A stretch of 64,000 nt of DNA from Candidatus Methanomethylicaceae archaeon (GCA_015660995.1 JACTUC010000003.1:30525-94524); one strand, 5' to 3'; shown: positions 11,240-50,180, counted from the stretch's first letter. The notes: generated by a model from the sequence alone, not told the origin. Translations and numbers: made by a program.

Positions 11240-12442
11240 TTAGACCAGCCTCCTCATGTCCAGGACCCTCTTGGCCTTCCCCTCGGATCTGGGGAGGCTT
11301 CCCTGGGGCAAAACCACCACATTGGTCCGGAGGAGCGTGGAGTCCTTGATCTGTTCGAATATCTCGACCCTGAGGCGTTCCATGGTAGCTTGGTCCTTGG
11401 AAAAGCCATTGCTGACCTCCAGCTTCACAGCTATGTCGTCTATGCCCGTGAGCTCGATCAGGAAGTTGCCATTGGACTCCCTGTGCGAGGCGACGATCCT
11501 TTCTATGTTGGAAGGATAGACCCCGATGCCCCGTACCTTGATCATGTCATCGAGCCTCCCGGTGAACCAGTCGATACGCCGGTGGCTTCTGCCGCAGTCG
11601 CAGGGGCCGTCGACGATACGAGTCACGTCCCCTGTCCTGTAGCGGAGCAGGGGCATGGCCTCCCGGCTCAGGGGGGTCAGGACCAGCTCGCCCTCCTCCT
11701 CCTCACCGAGGGTCTCGCCTGTCTTCGGGTCTATAACCTCTGCGATGAAGTGGTCCTCCCAGACATGGAGACCCGATTTGGCGCTGCACTCGATGGCCAC
11801 GCCCGGGCCGCCCATCTCGGCCAGCCCGTAGTTGTTGAAGGCCTCAATGCCCAGGCAGTCCTCGATCTTGCCTCGCATGGCTTTGGTCCAGGGCTCGGCG
11901 CCAAGAACCCCGATCCTGATCTTGAGCGACTCCCGCAGCCCAGGCTGACCTTCGAAGGCCTCAATCATGCGGATGGCAAAGGACGGGATTGCGTGGAATA
12001 TGGTAACGCCGAAATCTCTCATCACCTCCAGCTGCTTCTCAGCATTGGCCGAGCCTAGTGGGATCACAGTGAGACCAAGCCGCTCTGCCCCTTGGATGAG
12101 ACCCAAGCCCCCCGTGAAGAGCCCCTGGGAGGTGGTGTTCTGGAAAATATCCCCCCTAGCGGCCCCTGCGCATGCCAAGCCCCTTGCCATCAGCTCAGAC
12201 CAAGTCCTCAGATCGCCATTGGTGTAAAAAGTCGTTATGGGCTTGCTGGTGGTGCCCGACGAGGTGTGAACTCTCACTACACTTGATAGGGGGACTGCTA
12301 GGGCGCTGAATGGGAAGCTGTCAGCGATATCCTTCTTAGTTGTGAAGGGCAGCTTGGTCAGATCTTTTAGTCCATTGAAGTTTTTCAATTTCTTTTCTCT
12401 TAGCCTCTGCCTCAAGAACGGGACGTTTTGAGCCCTCTTCAA
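11240..12442 (-). CDS. Phenylacetate-CoA ligase (PaaK)-family adenylate-forming enzyme. It is translatable only from an internal TTG, and the N-terminal region appears frameshifted.
   Basis: Strong similarity to PaaK across the central domain (NVPFLRQRL..LPFTTKKDI..SSGTTSKPI). Homologous N-terminal sequence continues upstream in frame without a start codon. Confidence 0.75.
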   Translation of the reverse strand: MKRAQNVPFLRQRLREKKLKNFNGLKDLTKLPFTTKKDIADSFPFSALAVPLSSVVRVHTSSGTTSKPITTFYTNGDLRTWSELMARGLACAGAARGDIFQNTTSQGLFTGGLGLIQGAERLGLTVIPLGSANAEKQLEVMRDFGVTIFHAIPSFAIRMIEAFEGQPGLRESLKIRIGVLGAEPWTKAMRGKIEDCLGIEAFNNYGLAEMGGPGVAIECSAKSGLHVWEDHFIAEVIDPKTGETLGEEEEGELVLTPLSREAMPLLRYRTGDVTRIVDGPCDCGRSHRRIDWFTGRLDDMIKVRGIGVYPSNIERIVASHRESNGNFLIELTGIDDIAVKLEVSNGFSKDQATMERLRVEIFEQIKDSTLLRTNVVVLPQGSLPRSEGKAKRVLDMRRLV

Positions 12443-33468: not shown

Positions 33469-34722
33469 ATGGATTACAAAGTTAAGGATGTTGAGCTTGC
33501 TGGGAAGGGAATGTATCTTATGAGGTGGGCAGAGGATCACATGCCGGTCCTCATCACCATCAGGAGCCGTTTTACCAAGGAGAAGCCCCTGAAGGGAGTC
33601 CAGATCGTAGCGTGCCTGCATGTGACCAAGGAGACAGGTATCCTGATCAGGACCCTCATGGCAGGAGGGGCGAAGGTAGCGCTTGCGGCTTCCAACCCGC
33701 TCTCCACACAGGATGAGGTGGCGGCAGCTCTGGCGGAGGAAGGGGCGAATGTCTATGCCTGGAAGGGGCAGACCAAGAGCGAGTATTACGACTGCATAAA
33801 GATGGCCCTGAAGCATGGGCCGAGCATAACCATGGATGACGGCGCAGATGTGGTCTCGGAGCTCCATTCCGGCAAAGGGGATGTATCGAAGGTTCTTGGC
33901 GGGACGGAGGAGACGACCACGGGAGTTGTGAGGCTCAAGGCGATGGCTGAGAGAGGGGTTCTGAAATATCCAATAATAGCAGTGAACAACGCCGAGACGA
34001 AGTGGGACTTCGACAATGTCTACGGCACGGGGCAGAGCACGCTGGACGGGATAATGAGGGCAACAAACATCCTTCTCGCAGGCAAGGAGTTCGTGGTGGC
34101 GGGGTACGGACACTGCGGGAGGGGGCTCGCGAACAGGGCAAGGGGGATGGGCGCGCACGTGATTGTTACGGAAGTGGATCCCATGAAAGCTCTGAAGGCA
34201 GTGATGGATGGCTTCGAGGTGATGCCGATGCTGAAAGCTGCTGAGGTCGGGGACATATTTGTGACCGCGACGGGGAACAAGAGCGTGATACGCGGTGACC
34301 ATTACAAGAGGATGAAGAATGGCGCCATCCTTGCCAATACTGGGCACTTCAACGTTGAGGTCGACATCAAGGATCTCGAGTCGATGTCAAAGGGAAAGAT
34401 CAAGATAAGGGACTCGGTCGACGAATATACATTGAAGGACGGGAGGAAGGCGTATCTCCTTGCGGACGGCAGGCTTGTGAACCTTGCAGCTGCCGAGGGG
34501 CACCCAAGCGAGGTGATGGACATGAGCTTTGCCAACCAAGCTCTGGCAGCGGAGTACATCCAGAAATTCGGGAGGGAGCTTGAACCAAAGGTCTACGATG
34601 TACCAAAGGAGATCGATACCGCAATCGCGCAACTGAAACTGGAAACTATGGGCATCAGGATTGACAGCATGACAAAAGAGCAGGAAAAGTACGTTAGAGG
34701 ATGGTCTGAGGGAACCGAGTAA
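33469..34722 (+). CDS. ahcY: S-adenosyl-L-homocysteine hydrolase (adenosylhomocysteinase)
   Basis: [15 protein letters not shown]-terminus. NAD-binding GYGHCGRG. The track ORF carries a spurious Ser-rich N-extension from 33322. Confidence 0.9.
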
Positions 34723-34937
34723 ATGCAAGCTACGTCAGCTAAAAAATAGCGGCCAAATACAAAGAATAAAAGTGGGCGAAAGGCAGACTATCGAGACGTT
34801 GATCAATGAAGAAGCAATGCTCTTTGCGAAATATCTCAGAAATGAGAATGAACGATGGATTCCTAGAATTGTTCGGATATGATGTTAGTACTGAAATCAA
34901 AAAAAAATAAAAAAATTATTTGTTTGCATCTCACTGT

Positions 34938-36026
34938 TTAACTGTGTACTGGATATGCAACTGGCGTTCCGTCAGTGGCAAAGACTTTTATGGTGTGCGC
35001 AGAACCATCTGCCCAATTGGTAGCAGTCGAAACAACTGTTACTGTGCAGACATCACCAGGAGCTAATACTCCATTAGCGGGGTTAAATGTTATGGTAGTT
35101 GTGCCAACACCGTTCTGTAGAACGTTATCCACGTACACCGAACCTAGAGTCTCTGATTGAGCTCCTGTATTTCGTACGTAGACAGTAATTGTACTCCCTG
35201 GATTATTGAACATGACATTTCCTGTATCAATAGACATGGCTCCTTGTTGGGGTGCGGGCGGAATAGTTGTTGCATGGATCTCAAGTGGACCATTATACGC
35301 TTGGTCGGGCAGTCCGATCTCAAGCTGGAATTGAACTGTCAAACTGCTCCCCTGCGTCGAGGCTGGCAGTAGCGGACTAATCGATAATATGGTAAATGAT
35401 GCTGGCAATATGGATAAATTGTAAATGGTGAATGGCGGCACGTAAACATATCCTACCGTCAGGTTAATGATTTGATTCGCAAAAAGCCTGCCGAGAGACA
35501 AGGGAGCCGTGTAAAGCATGTTTGGATTATCTGACGTAACATTAATGTCTGTTATTTGAACCTCAGGTATCGACGGGATTTGGACCAGCGAATAGGTTTT
35601 TGAAAAAGTGTTTCCTGAAGTTGTGGTGAAAGTCACTTCTGCAACGCCGTTCCCTAGCGCGTCTGGGATGCCTGCGACCACACTGTTAGCTGAAATGTCT
35701 TGGGCATAGCCAACATAATCACCGATGATCGGATCAGTGAGTTTTTTGAAAAAGGAGGTCTTTATTGCAGAGGTGACGGTCATGAGGATGTTCCCTTGGC
35801 TATCCTTAATTGTCATCCTAACGGAGCCATCAGCAGGACCTATGGTTTGTGCCGCATCAGAAAGCGCAAATTTGAAAGTATAAACCCCTTCAGTCGGGCT
35901 TCCGCTTACAGTAAACAAGGCAAACTTGTCGGGGTTAATCCCTTGTGGCAATGATAAATAATAGCCTACACCTAATGCCACAACCACGATTACAACAACA
36001 AGCGCGATTATCGCAATTTTATTCAT
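34938..36026 (-). CDS. Secreted/surface protein with N-terminal signal anchor, Thr/Ser/Asn-rich (possible cell-surface glycoprotein or adhesin)
   Basis: MNKIAIIALVVVIVVVALGVGY hydrophobic N-terminus. Many N-x-S/T sequons. Beta-rich low-complexity composition. Confidence 0.45.
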   Translation of the reverse strand: MNKIAIIALVVVIVVVALGVGYYLSLPQGINPDKFALFTVSGSPTEGVYTFKFALSDAAQTIGPADGSVRMTIKDSQGNILMTVTSAIKTSFFKKLTDPIIGDYVGYAQDISANSVVAGIPDALGNGVAEVTFTTTSGNTFSKTYSLVQIPSIPEVQITDINVTSDNPNMLYTAPLSLGRLFANQIINLTVGYVYVPPFTIYNLSILPASFTILSISPLLPASTQGSSLTVQFQLEIGLPDQAYNGPLEIHATTIPPAPQQGAMSIDTGNVMFNNPGSTITVYVRNTGAQSETLGSVYVDNVLQNGVGTTTITFNPANGVLAPGDVCTVTVVSTATNWADGSAHTIKVFATDGTPVAYPVHS

Positions 36027-36366
36027 AACTAACCTTGAGTTAAAAGATGGTAATAGGATTTACGTGATATACGCTATACGTGATACGCAGTAAGGGAGAG
36101 AGATATAGAATAGAAGAGTAAGGAAGCAGGAGCTAGAGAGTAAGTAGTAGAATAAAAGTGTGTGTGTGGGGATTAAAATTTAACCCCAAACCCACATCTT
36201 CTTCTCCTCAAAGATCGAATGAAACTTCATAGATATGCATTATTTTAAATCAAATATTTCTTTGAGCCCCAGATTTTGCAGAAAGTCTCATTTATTTGAG
36301 ATCAGCATATAATCAATATCATTTTATCGAATATCGATCACAGGCGTATTCCTTGGGTGACTCTGC

Positions 36367-37350
36367 ATGATAGGAGATTTGGTGATTGAAACTAAAGGGC
36401 TTCGAAAGACTTTCATTTCTAAAGGGAGAGGCGGAAACAAAAAGGTAGAGGCCGTTAGGGGCATAGATCTGACTGTTAGGAGGGGGGAAATCTTCGGTTT
36501 CCTCGGCCCAAACGGCGCGGGCAAGTCTACAACTCAGAAAATGCTTTCAACTTTGCTATGTCCAACTGGTGGAGAAGCTAAGGTTCTTGGATATGACCTA
36601 GCAGAGCAGCAGGAACAGATTAGACAGAACGTTGGATGCGTCAGTCAAGCAGGAGGCGCAGACCTATCTTCCACAGGAATTGAAAATCTAGTCCTCATGG
36701 CTCAGCTTTATGGCGTGGATGCTTTGACTGCAAAGAAATACGCCTCCGAATTCGTGGAGCGTTTACAGATGAGTTCATTCATAGAACGACCCGCTCAATC
36801 CTATTCCGGCGGTCAAAAGCGCCGCCTAGACATTGCGCTTGGAATGATTCACCATCCACAACTACTTCTTCTCGACGAGCCGACAGCAGGTCTTGACCCG
36901 CAAAGCAGAGCCTACCTATGGGGCGAAATAAAAAAACTCAAAGCTGATGGTGTCACCATCTTTCTAACCACTCAATACATGGACGAGGCTGACAAGCTCT
37001 GTGACACAATAGCGATTATAGATAACGGGAATATTGTTGTGACAGGAACACCCGAGGAATTGAAAAGCTCCGTTGGCGGAGACACAATAGTTTTCAGTTT
37101 TCAATCAGAAGAAACCGCCCGTAAGGCTGAAACATTCTTGACCGAGAAGGTTCAGGGAGCGAGAATTCAAACTAAAGACAACACCGTCCGTTTAACCATC
37201 AAAGATGGAGAGAAGATGATGCCTGAGCTATTGCGTTCACTCGACGCACAAAACTTGGAGGCGCAAAGCGTAATGTTGTCCCGGCCAAGTCTTGATGATG
37301 TTTTCCTCAAGTACACAGGCCGTTCACTGAGGGAGGATGAAAGAAAATGA
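36367..37350 (+). CDS. ABC transporter ATP-binding protein (DrrA-like, ABC-2 exporter)
   Basis: Walker A GPNGAGKST. Signature YSGGQKRRL. Walker B LLLLDEP. Confidence 0.85.
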   Translation: MIGDLVIETKGLRKTFISKGRGGNKKVEAVRGIDLTVRRGEIFGFLGPNGAGKSTTQKMLSTLLCPTGGEAKVLGYDLAEQQEQIRQNVGCVSQAGGADLSSTGIENLVLMAQLYGVDALTAKKYASEFVERLQMSSFIERPAQSYSGGQKRRLDIALGMIHHPQLLLLDEPTAGLDPQSRAYLWGEIKKLKADGVTIFLTTQYMDEADKLCDTIAIIDNGNIVVTGTPEELKSSVGGDTIVFSFQSEETARKAETFLTEKVQGARIQTKDNTVRLTIKDGEKMMPELLRSLDAQNLEAQSVMLSRPSLDDVFLKYTGRSLREDERK

Positions 37351-38108
37351 AAATTCTACACGACACAAGACTAATGTTCATACGCAACATGCAGCACACT
37401 CTCAGAAGCCCGGTTTTTGTTTTCGTGAGCATGTTTCAACCCCTTATGTACTTGATCTTGTTTATGCCGCTCCTGAACGGTCTTGGCGGTGTCCCTGGGT
37501 TGCCTGCTGGGAAAACGGTAGATGTTTTTATTCCAGGGCTTTTGGTTCTGCAAGCGCTCTTCGGCACAGCTTTTGTTGGGTTTTCACTTATTGACGATAT
37601 CAGAACTGGAGTCATAGAACGATTTTTAGTGACTCCTGTGAACCGTTCTGCAATTCTTTTGGGTAGGGTTCTGAGAGATGCGATCATCCTTCTGTTCCAA
37701 TGTATTTTGATTACGCTAGTTGCCATTCCTTTTGGGCTGAGCATAAACATTTATGGATTTTTGCTTTCTCTATTGCTATACGCTTTGATCGGGATTACCA
37801 TGGCATCCCTTTCATACGGATTCGCTCTCATTTACAAAATTGAGGACCCGCTTGCTCCCACTTTGAACACGATAGCACTGCCCGTTTCTCTGCTATCGGG
37901 CATAATTCTTCCTCTAGCACTTGCGCCCGTGTGGCTTCAAGACATTTCTAAGATTAACCCGTTCTCCTACGCAGTCTATGCCACTCGTGCTTTATTTGCT
38001 GGAAGCTTTAGTAGCATCGATATTGCAGAAGGATTCGTCGTTATCGGTGTACTCGCAATCCTTGTATTCTTATGGGGGTTAAACTCACTCAAGAAAATGG
38101 CATCATAA
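37347..38108 (+). CDS. ABC-2 family transporter permease
   Basis: Six TM helices. 4-nt overlap with the upstream ATPase. Confidence 0.7.
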   Translation: MKILHDTRLMFIRNMQHTLRSPVFVFVSMFQPLMYLILFMPLLNGLGGVPGLPAGKTVDVFIPGLLVLQALFGTAFVGFSLIDDIRTGVIERFLVTPVNRSAILLGRVLRDAIILLFQCILITLVAIPFGLSINIYGFLLSLLLYALIGITMASLSYGFALIYKIEDPLAPTLNTIALPVSLLSGIILPLALAPVWLQDISKINPFSYAVYATRALFAGSFSSIDIAEGFVVIGVLAILVFLWGLNSLKKMAS

Positions 38109-45669: not shown

Positions 45670-46569
45670 GTGGTTGTGATGGTTAGAGAGTCGTTTTATA
45701 TCGACAGCCTTTCAAAAGGTTTTGGCGGTTTCCAGACAGATTTCTCGAAGGCAGATTTTGTCTTCTTCGGGGTTCCATTCGACAGCTCCTCGAGCTTCAG
45801 GCCTGGGTCGAGGTTCGGTCCCAGGGCATTGAGGGAAGTTTCCGCGAACCTCGAGACGTGGTCTTGGCGCACGGGGATGGACTTCGAGGGGATCAAGCTC
45901 CATGACCTTGGTGATGTCGCGGTAGTCCATGGCGACTCCGCAGAGACCATAAGGAGAGTTAGCGAGACCGTGGAGGACATCATAGGATCAAAGAAAATAC
46001 CAGTGATGGCGGGCGGCGAGCATTCCATGACGCTTGGCGCTGTGAAGGCGTTCAAGGACGTGACAGTTGTGTCGTTCGATGCCCACTTCGATTTGAGAGA
46101 TGATTACCTGTCGAACAAGCTTTCGCATGCTTCAGTCATGAGAAGGTCCTCAGAGGAGGTAGGGCCCGGTAATATCGTAATAGTCGGTCCAAGGGGGACG
46201 TACAGGGATGAGGTCGATTTCGTAAGGAAGAAGGGGATCTGCTACCTTTCGTCGCTGGACATAATCCGCTCTGGTTCCCAGCCAGCGGGGAAGTGGCTTC
46301 GCGAGAAGCTGAAGGGAGCCAAGAAGCTCTACGTGTCAGTCGACATAGATGTGCTCGATCCTGCCTACGCCCCGGGAGTCGGCAATCCAGAGCCAGAGGG
46401 GATCTCTACCACCGCGTTGCTCGACCTACTGCACGAGGTGGTTGATGGCCGCGTTGTGGGGTTCGACCTCGTTGAGGTATCTCCCCCCTATGACAATGGG
46501 AGCACAGCTGCGGTCGGGTCAAAAATAATATTCGAGATATGTTCGATGATCAAGTCCTCGGGTGGCTAG
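45670..46569 (+). CDS. Agmatinase/arginase-family ureohydrolase
   Basis: Mn-binding motifs GGEHS, DAHFD and SVDIDVLDPAYAPG. Confidence 0.8.
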   Translation: MVVMVRESFYIDSLSKGFGGFQTDFSKADFVFFGVPFDSSSSFRPGSRFGPRALREVSANLETWSWRTGMDFEGIKLHDLGDVAVVHGDSAETIRRVSETVEDIIGSKKIPVMAGGEHSMTLGAVKAFKDVTVVSFDAHFDLRDDYLSNKLSHASVMRRSSEEVGPGNIVIVGPRGTYRDEVDFVRKKGICYLSSLDIIRSGSQPAGKWLREKLKGAKKLYVSVDIDVLDPAYAPGVGNPEPEGISTTALLDLLHEVVDGRVVGFDLVEVSPPYDNGSTAAVGSKIIFEICSMIKSSGG

Positions 46570-46712
46570 TGGGATCGGATCTCATGGACTATCTGTGATC
46601 TTGCCTTGTACAGTATCCTGTGACCGCATGTTGGGCACCTTATGCCAGGCAGCCCGACGAGCTCGTTGCTCTCGATAACCTTCCCGCATTTTTCACATAT
46701 ATAGTGGGCCAA
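46566..46712 (-). CDS. rpoP: DNA-directed RNA polymerase subunit P (RpoP/Rpb12-like), 48 aa, TTG start. Not present in the ORF track (<60 aa).
   Basis: Translation gives MAHYICEKCGKVIESNELVGLPGIRCPTCGHRILYKARSQIVHEIRSH, with a CxxC...CxxC zinc ribbon. Convergently overlaps the speB stop by about 4 nt. Confidence 0.6.
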   Translation of the reverse strand: MAHYICEKCGKVIESNELVGLPGIRCPTCGHRILYKARSQIVHEIRSH

Positions 46713-46822: not shown

Positions 46823-48088
46823 ATGGCACCAGAATCGAAGGTATCGGGTTTCTACAAGATGGGCATTGACGAGAGGCTGCTCATCATCAAGGAAAAGGCA
46901 GGGCTATCGGACTCTGACCTACGGACTCTGAAGTGCGGGCTCGAACTGGGCACGGCCAACAGGATGGTAGAGAATGTCATCGGCATGACCCAGCTTCCAG
47001 TTGGAATTGCGATGAACTTCAGGATCAACGGCAGAGACTACCTCATCCCAATGGCGATTGAGGAGCCGTCGGTTGTGGCAGCGGCCAGCCATGCAGCCAA
47101 GCTTTCCCTGCCTGAGGGATTCACCGCCACGAGCACAAGGCCAGTGATGAGGGGACAGATGCAGGTTGTTGGGGTTAGGGATCTGGAGGAGGGCAAGAGG
47201 AAGGTCGGCGAAAATAGAAAAGACCTCGTGGAGAAGGCCAACAGCTTCGCGGATATGCTCCCATCAATCGGCGGGGGCGTGCTGGACGTCACGGCAAGGA
47301 TCATTGGTCCCCCCAGGGAGGGGATGCTCGTAGTGGAGTTCTTCGTGGATTGCAGGGACGCAATGGGTGCCAATACCATAAACACCATAGTGGAGGGTAT
47401 GGCCCCGGAGGTGGAGCAACTGGTGGGCGCGAAGGCGCTGCTCAAGATCATCTCGAATTTGGCGACGGAGAGATTGGCCAAGGCAAAGGTAGTCTACCGG
47501 AAGGAGGCCATTGGCGGCGAGGAGGTGGTCAGCAGGATAGTCGATGCGTACAAGTTCGCCTATTACGACCACTATAGGGCGACAACCCACAATAAAGGAA
47601 TAATGAATGGGATTACAGCAGTCACACTGGCGCTCGGCAACGACACGAGGGCGATCGAGGCAGGCGCTCATTCATACGCGGCCTTATCCGGAAAATACAT
47701 GCCCCTATCAAGATGGTCCAAGGACGAGGGTGGGAACCTCGTTGGCGAGCTGGAGCTGCCCTTGGCGTACGGGATAGTGGGCGGTGCGACAAAGACCCAC
47801 CCAGTGGCGCAAGTCTGCCTCAAGATTATCGGGGTCAAAACTGCTTCCGAGCTCGCGGAAGTGGCTTGTTCGGTGGGGCTTGCCCAGAACTTCGCCGCGC
47901 TTAGGGCGCTTGTTACTGAGGGGATACAGAGAGGACACATGGAGCTCCACGCAAGGAACATTGCGATACTAGCAGGCGCAACTGGAGACCAGATAGACAA
48001 GATCGCAGAGATCCTCGCCAAAGAGAGAAATGTCAAGGTCACGAGGGCGAAAGAGCTCATTGAATTGCTCAATAAAAAGGAGAGGTAA
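46823..48088 (+). CDS. hmgA: Hydroxymethylglutaryl-CoA reductase, class II
   Basis: DAMGANTIN motif. ENVIG..LPVG region. 421 aa from the first ATG. Confidence 0.85.
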   Translation: MAPESKVSGFYKMGIDERLLIIKEKAGLSDSDLRTLKCGLELGTANRMVENVIGMTQLPVGIAMNFRINGRDYLIPMAIEEPSVVAAASHAAKLSLPEGFTATSTRPVMRGQMQVVGVRDLEEGKRKVGENRKDLVEKANSFADMLPSIGGGVLDVTARIIGPPREGMLVVEFFVDCRDAMGANTINTIVEGMAPEVEQLVGAKALLKIISNLATERLAKAKVVYRKEAIGGEEVVSRIVDAYKFAYYDHYRATTHNKGIMNGITAVTLALGNDTRAIEAGAHSYAALSGKYMPLSRWSKDEGGNLVGELELPLAYGIVGGATKTHPVAQVCLKIIGVKTASELAEVACSVGLAQNFAALRALVTEGIQRGHMELHARNIAILAGATGDQIDKIAEILAKERNVKVTRAKELIELLNKKER

Positions 48089-48438
48089 TGATAGAAATTC
48101 TAGAGGTTAGTTTAATGAAGAAAGTTGAAATCATCCTGTTTCAGGCAGGAATTTGCGACTCTTGCGACGTCACTTGGGCGATAATGCAGAGCTTGGCCGG
48201 CATAATAAATGGCTATGTTGGGGATGAGATTGTTAAGCTGAAGCATTACACCCTCGGCGACGAGGAGGGAAGGGAGGCAGCATTGGACATGGGAGTGGAG
48301 GTTGGGCCCACGTTCTTCATTAATGGCGAAAAACACGAAGGCAAGGAGACCGGCGAGGAGATCTTTGAAGCCATCTTAGCCAAGCTCGATATTGACAAGA
48401 GCAAGAAAGATGCGATAAGGAAGTCATTGCTGGATTGA
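48088..48438 (+). CDS. Thioredoxin/glutaredoxin-fold protein with CDSC redox motif, translationally coupled (TAATG) to HMG-CoA reductase
   Basis: CDSC CxxC motif. VGPTFFINGE glutaredoxin-like strand. 116 aa. Confidence 0.55.
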   Translation: MIEILEVSLMKKVEIILFQAGICDSCDVTWAIMQSLAGIINGYVGDEIVKLKHYTLGDEEGREAALDMGVEVGPTFFINGEKHEGKETGEEIFEAILAKLDIDKSKKDAIRKSLLD

Positions 48439-48631
48439 GAATGGCTTCAAAGCAAATTAAGGAATGTCGTGGTTCGAGTTAGGATCGCGTAGCCCATCAT
48501 TTTCATGATGAGGTTGAAAGTCCTGAAGTTGGTGCACTCCATTTCAGTATTGACTAATGCAAACTTGGGCTCCCCAGATCTCAAAGCCCGATGGTGGGGA
48601 TGATTGAAATATGTAGAAAAATTATTGTTTT

Positions 48632-48862
48632 TTACTTTGCTAGAGTTCTCTGACCAGTCTTTGGATCCACATTGAACCATGTTTTGACATAGCTATCATA
48701 GACGCGCGTCGTGACAGGAGTCGCGGCAGGCATTGGGTGAGCTTGTTTCGTATGAGCGTCAAGTTCTTCTTTAGTCTTGAAAGAAGCACTGCAAGCTGAA
48801 CATTTAAAATCTTTCTTACTTCCAAATGGCCATCGCATATATATCGCATTTATTGTTATCAC
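48632..48862 (-). CDS. Small C2H2 zinc-finger protein (putative), located in an AT-rich island
   Basis: FKCSACSASFKTKEELDAHTKQAH matches the C-x2-C-x12-H-x4-H classical zinc finger. 68-76 aa. Confidence 0.4.
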   Translation of the reverse strand: MITINAIYMRWPFGSKKDFKCSACSASFKTKEELDAHTKQAHPMPAATPVTTRVYDSYVKTWFNVDPKTGQRTLAK

Positions 48863-49631
48863 TGATCCTTAATATAAGTAACTATGGTGCTGACAGTCAC
48901 AGTTTCATTCTCCCAATAAAAAATCCAACTAGGCGCAATTATACTGTAAGCCTCAAAAGGTTGAATATAGAAGATGATCCCTTACAATTTCACAGTTTAA
49001 GCATTGTTATTGAACTTTAGGAATTGGCTTGGCTGGGTTTGACCCACGACCAGCAAGATAAAGCTGCAAACTATTGGAAAATCATCGAAGCTCTTGCATC
49101 TTCTTCAAAATTTCGTTGTATCCCAACAGCCTGCAGGATTCACAGTGCTTTTCAATGTGAACTGTCTTGTTGCTCTCGCACCACCAATAATCTTTGATCC
49201 TCCAATCGTCTCTTTTCAATTCTTTTCATTCTCCACTTTTTTCTGTTTTACTATTTCTTCTTTGATCCGATCCAGACCAATTCTTCCTTCTCAGGTTTCT
49301 GATAGATACTCTGAGATTCTTAGTTTCCTGGAAGATTACTGCTTCCAGTGTGAACTTGATTCTGGTATAAGTTCACCACAACTCCAGCTTCCTAGTAGGA
49401 GTCGATAATGATAAGGTCGACTGTTCGCTCATGGAGCAAGACGAAAGTAATATCCGGTGACTCACATGAAGTGACTCATTCTTAGTTTCGCAAAAAAATT
49501 ACTGATGGATTTTGACGCATTACTCTATGCGTGGAAGGTAGGTGATCTACCACTGCAAAGTTCCTCCTTCTGCGAAATATGATAGCACGCCTTATTTTGA
49601 AGTTAACAAATAGTAATGTTTGGTGTGGTCA

Positions 49632-50180
49632 ATGAACCCGAAAATTCTGACAGATAACGCCAGGATACTCAAGAATATACCCAGGACAGGCTGGCTTCAG
49701 CGCGGAATACCGCTCTCTGTAGCGGAGACCGTGGCTGAGCACTCATTCGAAGTGGCATCCATACTCGCGGTAATATCAATGGAAGCGGGGGGAGGTCTTG
49801 ACAAGGAGAAGCTTCTGATAATGGGAACTATTCACGACTGGGGGGAGGCGGTGGCTGGGGATATACCCAGGTCACTCACCAAGAGGTTGGGAAAGGAAAC
49901 AAAAAGCAAGGCAGAGATGAAGATAATGAAAGAACTCTCCGCTGCAAGCGGGTCCAAGAGGCTCGCGCAAATCTTCGAGGAGTATGAGGGAGGGAAGAGC
50001 GTTGAAGCAGTAGTGGCAAAGATAGCAGACGTGCTCTCCACCCTCAGGCAGGCAAAAGCATACTCGGATAGGGGTTACCATGTGGAGGACATAGTATCGG
50101 GATGCAAGGAAGAACTCAACGAGCTCCTGGAGCGGATCAGCAGCGAGGGATTAAGGAGAATAATAAGAAAGCTCCAATGA
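49632..50180 (+). CDS. HD-domain phosphohydrolase (YfbR-like 5'-nucleotidase family)
   Basis: AEHSF...HDWGEAVAGD HD motif. Confidence 0.7.
   Translation: MNPKILTDNARILKNIPRTGWLQRGIPLSVAETVAEHSFEVASILAVISMEAGGGLDKEKLLIMGTIHDWGEAVAGDIPRSLTKRLGKETKSKAEMKIMKELSAASGSKRLAQIFEEYEGGKSVEAVVAKIADVLSTLRQAKAYSDRGYHVEDIVSGCKEELNELLERISSEGLRRIIRKLQ

Follow-up and report, generated by a model that had tools for sequence, protein, structure and literature searches.

Two conserved small-protein genes, one encoding a single C2H2 finger, in an AT-rich intergenic segment of a Candidatus Methanomethylicaceae chromosome

In a 64,000-nucleotide stretch of DNA from a Candidatus Methanomethylicaceae archaeon (GCA_015660995.1, JACTUC010000003.1:30525-94524; the whole stretch is referred to as the window), an AT-rich segment of about 1.2 kb (48439-49630) separates two groups of ordinary genes, and the question raised by this island is what occupies it. 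A first-pass annotation had described it as non-coding DNA with a zinc-finger mini-ORF and had considered an ncRNA locus, a large regulatory region, and a decayed mobile or integrated element. The analysis described here makes it likely that the island is a lineage-specific intergenic segment holding two independently transcribed minus-strand genes for probable zinc-binding micro-proteins, termed ZnF and ORF45, together with AT-rich control regions. The anomaly is real and its explanation is ordinary, namely two small genes that are unannotated or inconsistently annotated, and their control regions; the unusual composition is accounted for without a new kind of element.

Extent, composition and conservation of the island

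The GC content of the island is 0.401, against 0.519 for the whole window and 0.53 for its ORFs, which bears out the reported drop over about 1.2 kb, and 48439-49630 is the lowest-GC 1.2-kb stretch of the window. AT-richness as such is not an anomaly, as the other intergenic gaps of the window have GC contents of 35-46%, with a mean of 0.433. The low GC of the island is usual for non-coding DNA in the host genome, and only the length of the gap is unusual. It arises because the non-coding spacers have the usual intergenic GC of the host, and also because the two small proteins are rich in Lys, Glu, and Asn and the GC3 of ZnF is low. The gap without a large ORF spans 48439-49619 (1.18 kb) and is the longest in the window, the runner-up measuring 465 bp; this figure was obtained after a low-complexity plus-strand ORF (49094-49408) had been discarded, and a greedy set of ORFs of at least 80 aa covers 89% of the window. 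The discarded 104-aa ORF was rejected as a gene on account of its low complexity and of indels that break its frame in relatives. Inspection of relatives agrees with the earlier statement on 48870-49620 in that no conserved ORF of at least 60 aa lies there. The label “non-coding” does not hold, as two small ORFs display protein-coding substitution patterns, and the supposedly ORF-free stretch contains one of them, the conserved 45-aa gene ORF45.

The left flank, on the plus strand, consists of genes for arginase, RpoP, HMG-CoA reductase (HMGR), and a 116-aa thioredoxin-fold (Trx-like) protein, and the right flank contains an HD hydrolase gene, a gene for a protein resembling MJ0093, and marker genes for methanogenesis (MCR_C/MCR_D type). 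Relatives of the HD hydrolase gene assign the window to Ca. Methanomethylicota (Verstraetearchaeota), and one member of the cluster containing the Trx-like protein carries the annotation Candidatus Methanomethylicaceae archaeon. The start of the HD hydrolase gene is a conserved ATG at 49632, giving the 182-aa product reported by gene callers, and a TTG at 49620 is not kept in one of the relatives (L085). Between these flanks, the following features were distinguished.

48439-48631, no strand: convergent 3'-end spacer of the Trx-like gene (plus) and ZnF (minus), with T-runs on both strands; identity to relatives 0.64-0.76
48632-48838, minus strand: ZnF gene, 68 aa, MRWPFGSKKDFKCSACSASFKTKEELDAHTKQAH-PMPAATPVTT-RVYDSYVKTWFNVDPKTGQRTLAK
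48867-48885, minus strand: block ATAGTTACTTATATTAAGG, 19 nt long and invariant, some 30 nt upstream of the start codon of ZnF, with TATA-like CTTATATT
48886-49081, no strand: spacer from the ORF45 stop to the probable ZnF promoter, poorly conserved (identity 0.61-0.81)
49082-49219, minus strand: ORF45, 45 aa, (M)KRDDWRIKDYWWCESNKTVHIEKHCESCRLLGYNEILKKMQELR, with a TTG start
49220-49300, minus strand: purine-rich ORF45 leader, with a GGAG Shine-Dalgarno-like box at 49231-49234
49289-49316: weaker hairpin H4, just downstream of the conserved block
49328-49348: weaker hairpin H3, just downstream of the conserved block
about 49331-49425, minus strand: conserved non-coding block, identity 0.82-0.92, with no conserved frame
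49350-49376: inverted repeat H2, GTGAACTT-N9-11-AAGTTCAC
49400-49422: inverted repeat H1, AGTCGA-N11-TCGACT, enclosing TATA-like CCTTATCATTA
49457-49478, plus strand: direct repeat GTGACTCA-N6-GTGACTCA, each copy a near-palindrome GTGA(C/G)TCAC
49571-49631, plus strand: HD hydrolase promoter region, with TATA-like CCTTATTTTG at 49590-49599; identity 0.84-0.86

Conservation was assessed among four congeneric Ca. Methanomethylicaceae lineages, that of the window included. Two of these (L081/82 and L083/84, on JGI and Logan contigs) were found through ZnF homologues, and the fourth (L085/86, on a 797-kb contig) was reached through ORF45. The ZnF homologues P0001 and P0002 are 84-87% identical and syntenic with the window, and the ORF45 homologue P0003, on the 797-kb contig, is 96% identical and likewise syntenic. 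The same island is located between the HD and Trx-like/HMGR genes in all three relatives, so that the syntenic comparison places it in four congeneric lineages; it is absent from L001 and L002, which are more distant Methanomethylicota. Of the two things that would have spoken against the first-pass annotation, one applies: the spacer is shared by relatives and carries ordinary promoter-like boxes, but the ZnF ORF is conserved. Nucleotide identities between the window and L081 and L083 were as follows.

Flanking enzyme genes: 86-93%
ORF45 (49082-49219): 92-94%
ZnF ORF: 88-92%
400 bp from ORF45 to the HD hydrolase gene: 82-84%
Remaining spacers: 76-79%

The peaks and troughs of a 30-nt conservation profile agree with these segment identities. 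ZnF is conserved to the same degree as the flanking enzymes; ORF45 equals or exceeds them, and nothing else in the island is conserved so well. The spacers diverge faster than the two ORFs and carry indels: about 130 bp within 48439-48631 are present in the three other lineages and missing from the window in the alignment, and L083 has a 510-bp insertion in the 48886-49081 spacer, whose small ORFs matched no family above noise in PHROGs, NCBIfam, or Pfam. A candidate third small ORF in the extra 130 bp or so of the relatives was rejected, as its frames differ among lineages. Conservation of non-coding DNA is weak evidence here because only four lineages, with about 8-14% nucleotide divergence in the flanking genes, enter the comparison.

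Two minus-strand genes and their probable control regions

The C2H2 motif FKCSACSASFKTKEELDAHTKQAH reported earlier is present, in the minus-strand ORF 48632-48862. The ATG at 48838 (MRWPFG...) is kept in all lineages and the extension to the GTG at 48862 is not conserved, and ZnF therefore comprises 68 residues. It contains one finger, F11-x-C13-x2-C16-x3-F20-x5-L26-x2-H29-x4-H34, which satisfies the classical motif (F/Y)-x-C-x2-5-C-x3-(F/Y)-x5-hydrophobic-x2-H-x3-5-H, and its seven diagnostic residues are invariant in the three aligned sequences and in the fourth lineage. The finger is followed by a Pro/Ala/Thr linker and by an invariant C-terminal segment of 25 residues, RVYDSYVKTWFNVDPKT(G/D)QRTLAK, which is the most conserved part of the protein. 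Between the window and L085, synonymous changes outnumber non-synonymous ones by 11 to 1, and codon position 3 takes 12 of the 13 differences; this pattern indicates that ZnF is a real, conserved protein gene under purifying selection.

An HMM search with the zinc-finger ORF, one of the checks named at the outset, matched the C2H2 models PF13912, PF13894, PF12171, and PF00096 of Pfam (E = 2.5e-4 to 2e-3), all below their gathering thresholds. Scores below gathering are usual for a lone C2H2 finger. Solved eukaryotic C2H2 fingers were matched in the PDB by phmmer (best E = 1.5e-7, a value driven by multi-finger targets), and when 1.8 billion representative proteins were searched with a profile, poly-finger proteins came up in their thousands, aligned solely over positions 6-35, the one full-length match being the family of ZnF itself. 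The AlphaFold2 (AF2) model of ZnF, built on a 3-sequence alignment, has a pLDDT of 71.5 and consists of a beta-beta-alpha finger (strands 11-12 and 19-20, helix 23-33, pLDDT there about 77-80), a Pro/Ala/Thr linker without order, and a C-terminal set of three strands; when the modelled finger is laid over solved C2H2 fingers, 22-28 residues agree to within 0.4-1.6 A. The GC3 of ZnF is 0.362, against 0.60-0.70 for host genes, and reading ZnF as an ordinary native gene leaves this low value unexplained. A BLAST search of the rest of the window with the island and both proteins found no paralogue; a weak ZnF-like match at 12200-12355 was rejected, as it falls at the N-terminal end of an enzyme-like ORF of 400 aa and contains no finger.

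ORF45 is rich in Cys and His, and C14, H21, H25, C26, and C29 are its candidate metal ligands. Across lineage pairs, 3-11 synonymous changes stand against 0-2 non-synonymous ones, with position 3 taking nearly all of them, and the comparison of the window with L085 gives 11 and 2, respectively, codon position 3 accounting for 13 of the 14 differences. The synonymous changes of ORF45 hit the second codon position of an antisense 57-aa ORF that runs across it, and the antisense ORF is therefore not a conserved frame. These patterns indicate that ORF45 is a real protein gene under purifying selection. Its GC3 (0.587) is host-like. The TTG at 49219 is invariant across lineages, and we take it to be the common start. 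The GGAG box is conserved at a varying distance from this TTG, and the 5' indels of the gene (0, +1, or +2 nt) are confined to the interval between the two. An upstream ATG (L081 and L083) or GTG (L085) lies in the ORF45 frame in the relatives and is out of frame in the window through a 1-nt insertion; if the TTG were not the start, ORF45 of the window could be shorter by three N-terminal residues, or damaged. The AF2 model (pLDDT 80.7) predicts three strands followed by a helix. No family in Pfam, NCBIfam, or PHROG scored above threshold, no sequence in the PDB matched, and Foldseek found no fold match for the model; on these searches, ORF45 is an orphan family without relatives outside the clade.

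Spacer DNA, in which promoter-like boxes and conserved inverted repeats occur, makes up about 60% of the island. The idea of a large regulatory region is partly right, but the main content had been missed: the zinc-finger mini-ORF flagged earlier is a real gene, and a second gene accompanies it. The invariant block at 48867-48885 is the longest fully invariant run of the island, and its box matches the CTTATATT / CCTTTATTAAA boxes located 5' of other genes in the window; it probably serves ZnF as a promoter. The CCTTATTTTG box upstream of the HD hydrolase gene likewise resembles boxes 5' of other window genes. The CT-rich tract noted earlier is present at about 49190-49300 and forms, on the opposite strand, the purine-rich ORF45 leader. 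Further upstream, the conserved block contains a 17-nt invariant run (49409-49425), and the stems of H1 and H2 are invariant with variable loops in the four lineages. The H2 loop differs in both sequence and length (9-11 nt); H2 occurs once in the window, where the chance expectation is 0. H3 and H4 decay in L085. The block at about 49331-49425 is probably the promoter/operator and 5' leader of ORF45. A 19-aa ORF over the block (MSEQSTLSLSTPTRKLELW) was rejected because L083 and L085 offer it neither a start nor a frame.

The direct repeat of GTGACTCA is also present, at 49457-49478 and not at 49454-49475 as first given. It does not exceed chance, as exact 8-mers repeated within 20 nt have a frequency of 0.31 per kb across the window and turn up in 20% of shuffled versions of the island; its conservation is partial, L085 having lost the second copy and L081 having it in degraded form.

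In mechanistic terms, the TATA-like box at 48867-48885 would drive transcription of ZnF, whose leader would be very short. The one C2H2 finger of the protein would bind zinc and contact nucleic acid, most likely DNA as in the viral protein AFV1p06, and the invariant C-terminal three-stranded module may supply specificity or a partner contact. ORF45, starting at the TTG after the GGAG box, would be transcribed from the TATA-like box inside the 49400-49422 inverted repeat, a candidate repressor operator, with a purine-rich, hairpin-bearing leader of about 160 nt, and the protein is predicted to fold as three strands and a helix around a Cys/His metal site. Binding of metal and of DNA, the placing of the promoters, and any operator activity of the inverted repeats are all proposals of this model.

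Alternative explanations

If the mini-ORFs were chance frames in a slowly evolving regulatory spacer, the island would be a long divergent promoter region, as the divergent HD hydrolase gene at its flank, the several promoter-like boxes, and the sub-threshold Pfam scores of the finger might suggest. Such a spacer would not explain why third-position periodicity and the excess of synonymous changes are confined to two frames, with the changes in ORF45 falling on second codon positions of the antisense ORF, nor why starts and stops are conserved, why indels are frequent outside the ORFs and avoided inside them, and why all seven diagnostic C2H2 residues are invariant. Chance frames are already contradicted by the codon analysis and seem very improbable. 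A structured RNA in the conserved block, extended to about 49289-49425 on the minus strand with H1-H4 as its core and acting as a cis-regulatory leader of ORF45 or as a separate small RNA, is a less remote alternative and still an unlikely one. The block has an identity of 0.82-0.92 without a conserved reading frame and holds four stem-loops in succession; in H3, a G-C pair gives way to A-U in one compensatory change and a single G-U pair occurs, and the invariant 8-bp arms and variable loop of H2 fit a hairpin more closely than a protein site of fixed spacing. Rfam 15 gave 0 matches in the whole window at the gathering threshold, and a relaxed search of 48300-49800 at E up to 10 gave just two, both at chance level (E = 3.8 and 8.7). 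Folding gives minimum free energy (MFE) z-scores no better than -1.5 (minus strand) and -0.07 (plus strand), the covariation term of RNAalifold (+0.88) lends no support, and the values observed in pair counting were reached by 417 of 500 shuffles. H3 and H4 fall apart in L085, there is no T-run terminator between the block and ORF45, and the TATA-like box within H1 fits an operator at the DNA level. The earlier suggestion of an ncRNA locus accordingly finds no backing in the Rfam scan, the folding energies, or covariation.

The origin of the island bears on a further alternative, in which the island, perhaps with the Trx-like gene (48088-49630), is a decayed remnant of a virus, plasmid, or other mobile element and the two small genes are its cargo. 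In L001 and L002, whose HD proteins are 67-72% identical to that of the window, HMGR is followed by a 61-aa 4Fe-4S ferredoxin gene on the opposite strand and then by the HD hydrolase gene; about 257 bp separate HMGR from HD, and both the Trx-like gene and the island are lacking, as would be expected of a segment inserted or replaced. In L003 and L004, the HMGR-HD locus is not syntenic and the gene order is different. The ferredoxin gene occupies the same position in L001 and L002, and the comparison therefore points to the island being a genus-level acquisition at a variable spot. A mobile remnant would also fit the Trx-like homologues (61-71% identity), whose neighbourhoods are unrelated to that of the window, the low GC3 of ZnF, the indel-prone nature of the spot (the 510-bp insertion in L083 and the 130-bp deletion in the window), and the mostly viral or proviral occurrence of single C2H2 fingers in Crenarchaeota (PMC3541406). 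Against it, no integrase, transposase, or other mobile-element gene is present in any frame, a scan for tRNA and tmRNA found neither and thus no tRNA target, a search for flanking direct or inverted repeats returned short chance matches only, and the window holds no second copy. Neither IMG/VR (scanned with ZnF) nor PHROGs, INPHARED, or PLSDB (protein and DNA) contains significant relatives, ORF45 and the Trx-like gene (GC3 0.598) have a host-like GC3, and the segment is stable at one locus in four species-level lineages. The mobile or integrated element proposed earlier thus lacks its expected hallmarks and is unlikely.

Two small protein genes with their control regions remain the preferred reading. 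A bolder version would make the genus-specific zinc-binding pair a regulatory module between the mevalonate-pathway gene HMGR and the methanogenesis-marker genes. ZnF, a eukaryote-type C2H2 finger with a unique beta-sheet tail, would then be a sequence-specific transcription factor of a kind uncharacterised in cellular archaea, ORF45 would be a fold-orphan Cys/His protein expressed from a long leader or operator with hairpins, and the inverted repeats would be ZnF operators, or the leader a new cis-regulatory RNA; this version is improbable.

Relation to known zinc-binding proteins

Classical C2H2 fingers are described as nearly confined to eukaryotes, with few occurrences in Crenarchaeota, Euryarchaeota, and their viruses, and the one characterised archaeal example is the viral protein AFV1p06, for which an NMR structure has been determined and zinc and DNA binding have been shown (PMC3541406). 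Like ZnF, AFV1p06 is small, carries a single beta-beta-alpha C2H2 finger with the diagnostic Cys, His, and hydrophobic residues and with N- and C-terminal extensions, and stems from the Thermoproteota (crenarchaeal) lineage. A profile search, in which the family of ZnF itself gave the sole full-length match, detected no sequence relationship between the two outside the finger. ZnF keeps the H-x4-H spacing, whereas AFV1p06 has Glu in place of the second His, and the extension of AFV1p06 is a loop-helix-strand, whereas that of ZnF is predicted to be a linker and a three-stranded sheet, the two being compared by description. AFV1p06 is viral and the ZnF gene is chromosomal without proviral signs; no ZnF relatives were found in the viral sets (IMG/VR and INPHARED; best E = 0.057 in PHROGs). 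As homology does not extend beyond the finger and the predicted extension differs, ZnF is not filed in the AFV1p06 family. In function, ZnF is probably a regulator that binds nucleic acid as proteins of the AFV1p06 type do.

Haloferax volcanii possesses one-domain zinc-finger micro-proteins of the C(P)XCG type, such as HVO_2753 and HVO_0758, with reported roles in regulation or stress adaptation (PMC6562870, PMC10716476, PMC11241148). They resemble ZnF and ORF45 in being archaeal, shorter than 70 aa, made up essentially of one metal-binding module, and often unannotated. They are, however, zinc ribbons of the C4 type that carry a pair of C(P)XCG motifs; they show no sequence similarity to either protein, whereas ZnF is of the C2H2 type and ORF45 has the pattern C-x6-H-x3-HC-x2-C. 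The two C(P)XCG motifs are absent from both, with CSAC and HTKQAH in ZnF and one CESC and a single upstream Cys in ORF45. The Ros/MucR proteins are prokaryotic regulators that bind DNA and share the C2H2 type of zinc site with ZnF, but they have a larger globular domain of about 58 residues with a different spacing, and the Pfam scan gave no Ros/MucR match.

A metagenome scan with the ZnF alignment returned the known lineage and one finger within an unrelated membrane protein, and nothing else. The latter belongs to a 245-aa protein on the metagenome contig L088 (Ga0190310_1006767), whose finger and preceding residues (RWPPRGSTPKDFKCPACDKHFRTEDQLRDHLEKDH, against RWPFGSKKDFKCSACSASFKTKEELDAHTKQAH in ZnF) are 33% identical to ZnF over 53 residues. 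This finger is embedded between transmembrane segments of a much larger protein and is not followed by the C-terminal RVYDSYVKTWFNVDPKT module.

Single classical C2H2 fingers are uncommon in cellular archaea, the one characterised case being viral. A chromosomal finger under purifying selection in the methyl-reducing Methanomethylicaceae is a tractable candidate regulator, as members of this phylum can now be cultured. The two conserved genes, missing or inconsistently called in Methanomethylicaceae MAGs, also represent a modest gain in annotation: ORF45 had previously been called in one lineage only, with a wrong N-terminus and a spurious name, and for ZnF exactly as encoded in the window, Logan and ENA gene calls are the sole records.

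A small redox gene between HMGR and the HD hydrolase

In two more distant Methanomethylicota contigs, a 61-aa 4Fe–4S ferredoxin gene is found on the minus strand (L001:2973-3158 and L002:1275-1460), and it sits between the HMGR and HD hydrolase genes, where the window carries the Trx-like gene and the AT-rich island. At this position, one small redox protein is swapped for another, a ferredoxin versus a Trx-like protein. The HD hydrolase itself most likely starts at ATG 49632, yielding a 182-aa protein that begins MNPK; an alternative TTG at 49620, which is replaced by TTA in the congeneric lineage L085, would give a 186-aa ORF.

The zinc-finger and Cys/His-rich genes of the island

The TATA-like box of the zinc-finger micro-protein gene (window 48867-48885) is almost palindromic: one strand reads CTTATATTAAG and the opposite strand CTTAATATAAG, and the promoter-box pattern is therefore matched on both. 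A C2H2 finger similar in sequence to that of the micro-protein, including the preceding RWP..G..KDFKC (33% over 53 residues), is embedded in a 245-aa predicted membrane protein on an unrelated metagenomic contig (L088:1380-2117).

For the L085 homologue of the 45-aa Cys/His-rich ORF (P0003, L085:4001-4195), the JGI gene call is 64 aa long and bears the name “polyisoprenoid-binding protein YceI”, which no family search supports; its 19-residue N-terminal extension is out of frame in the other lineages. Directly after the stop codon of the 45-aa ORF, L083 carries a lineage-specific 510-bp insertion (L083:6048-6560) with two small basic ORFs of 52 and 69 aa, neither of which has a family match, and the insertion shows that this intergenic spot tolerates insertions.

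Other small genes and low-GC DNA of the window

A further small gene occupies a short gap between the arginase and HMGR genes, and another low-GC region (34500-38100, 36–44% GC), larger than the island, contains an ORF without a Pfam match and a transporter pair:

46566-46712, minus strand, 48-aa zinc-ribbon ORF matching the RNA polymerase subunit RpoP (PF03604, E = 1.6e-8)
34938-36026, minus strand, 362-aa ORF
36367-37350 and 37347-38108, ABC-2 transporter pair

Among the listed intergenic gaps of the window, gap 36027-36366 has the second lowest GC content (35.6%), below which lies gap 34723-34937 (34.9%).
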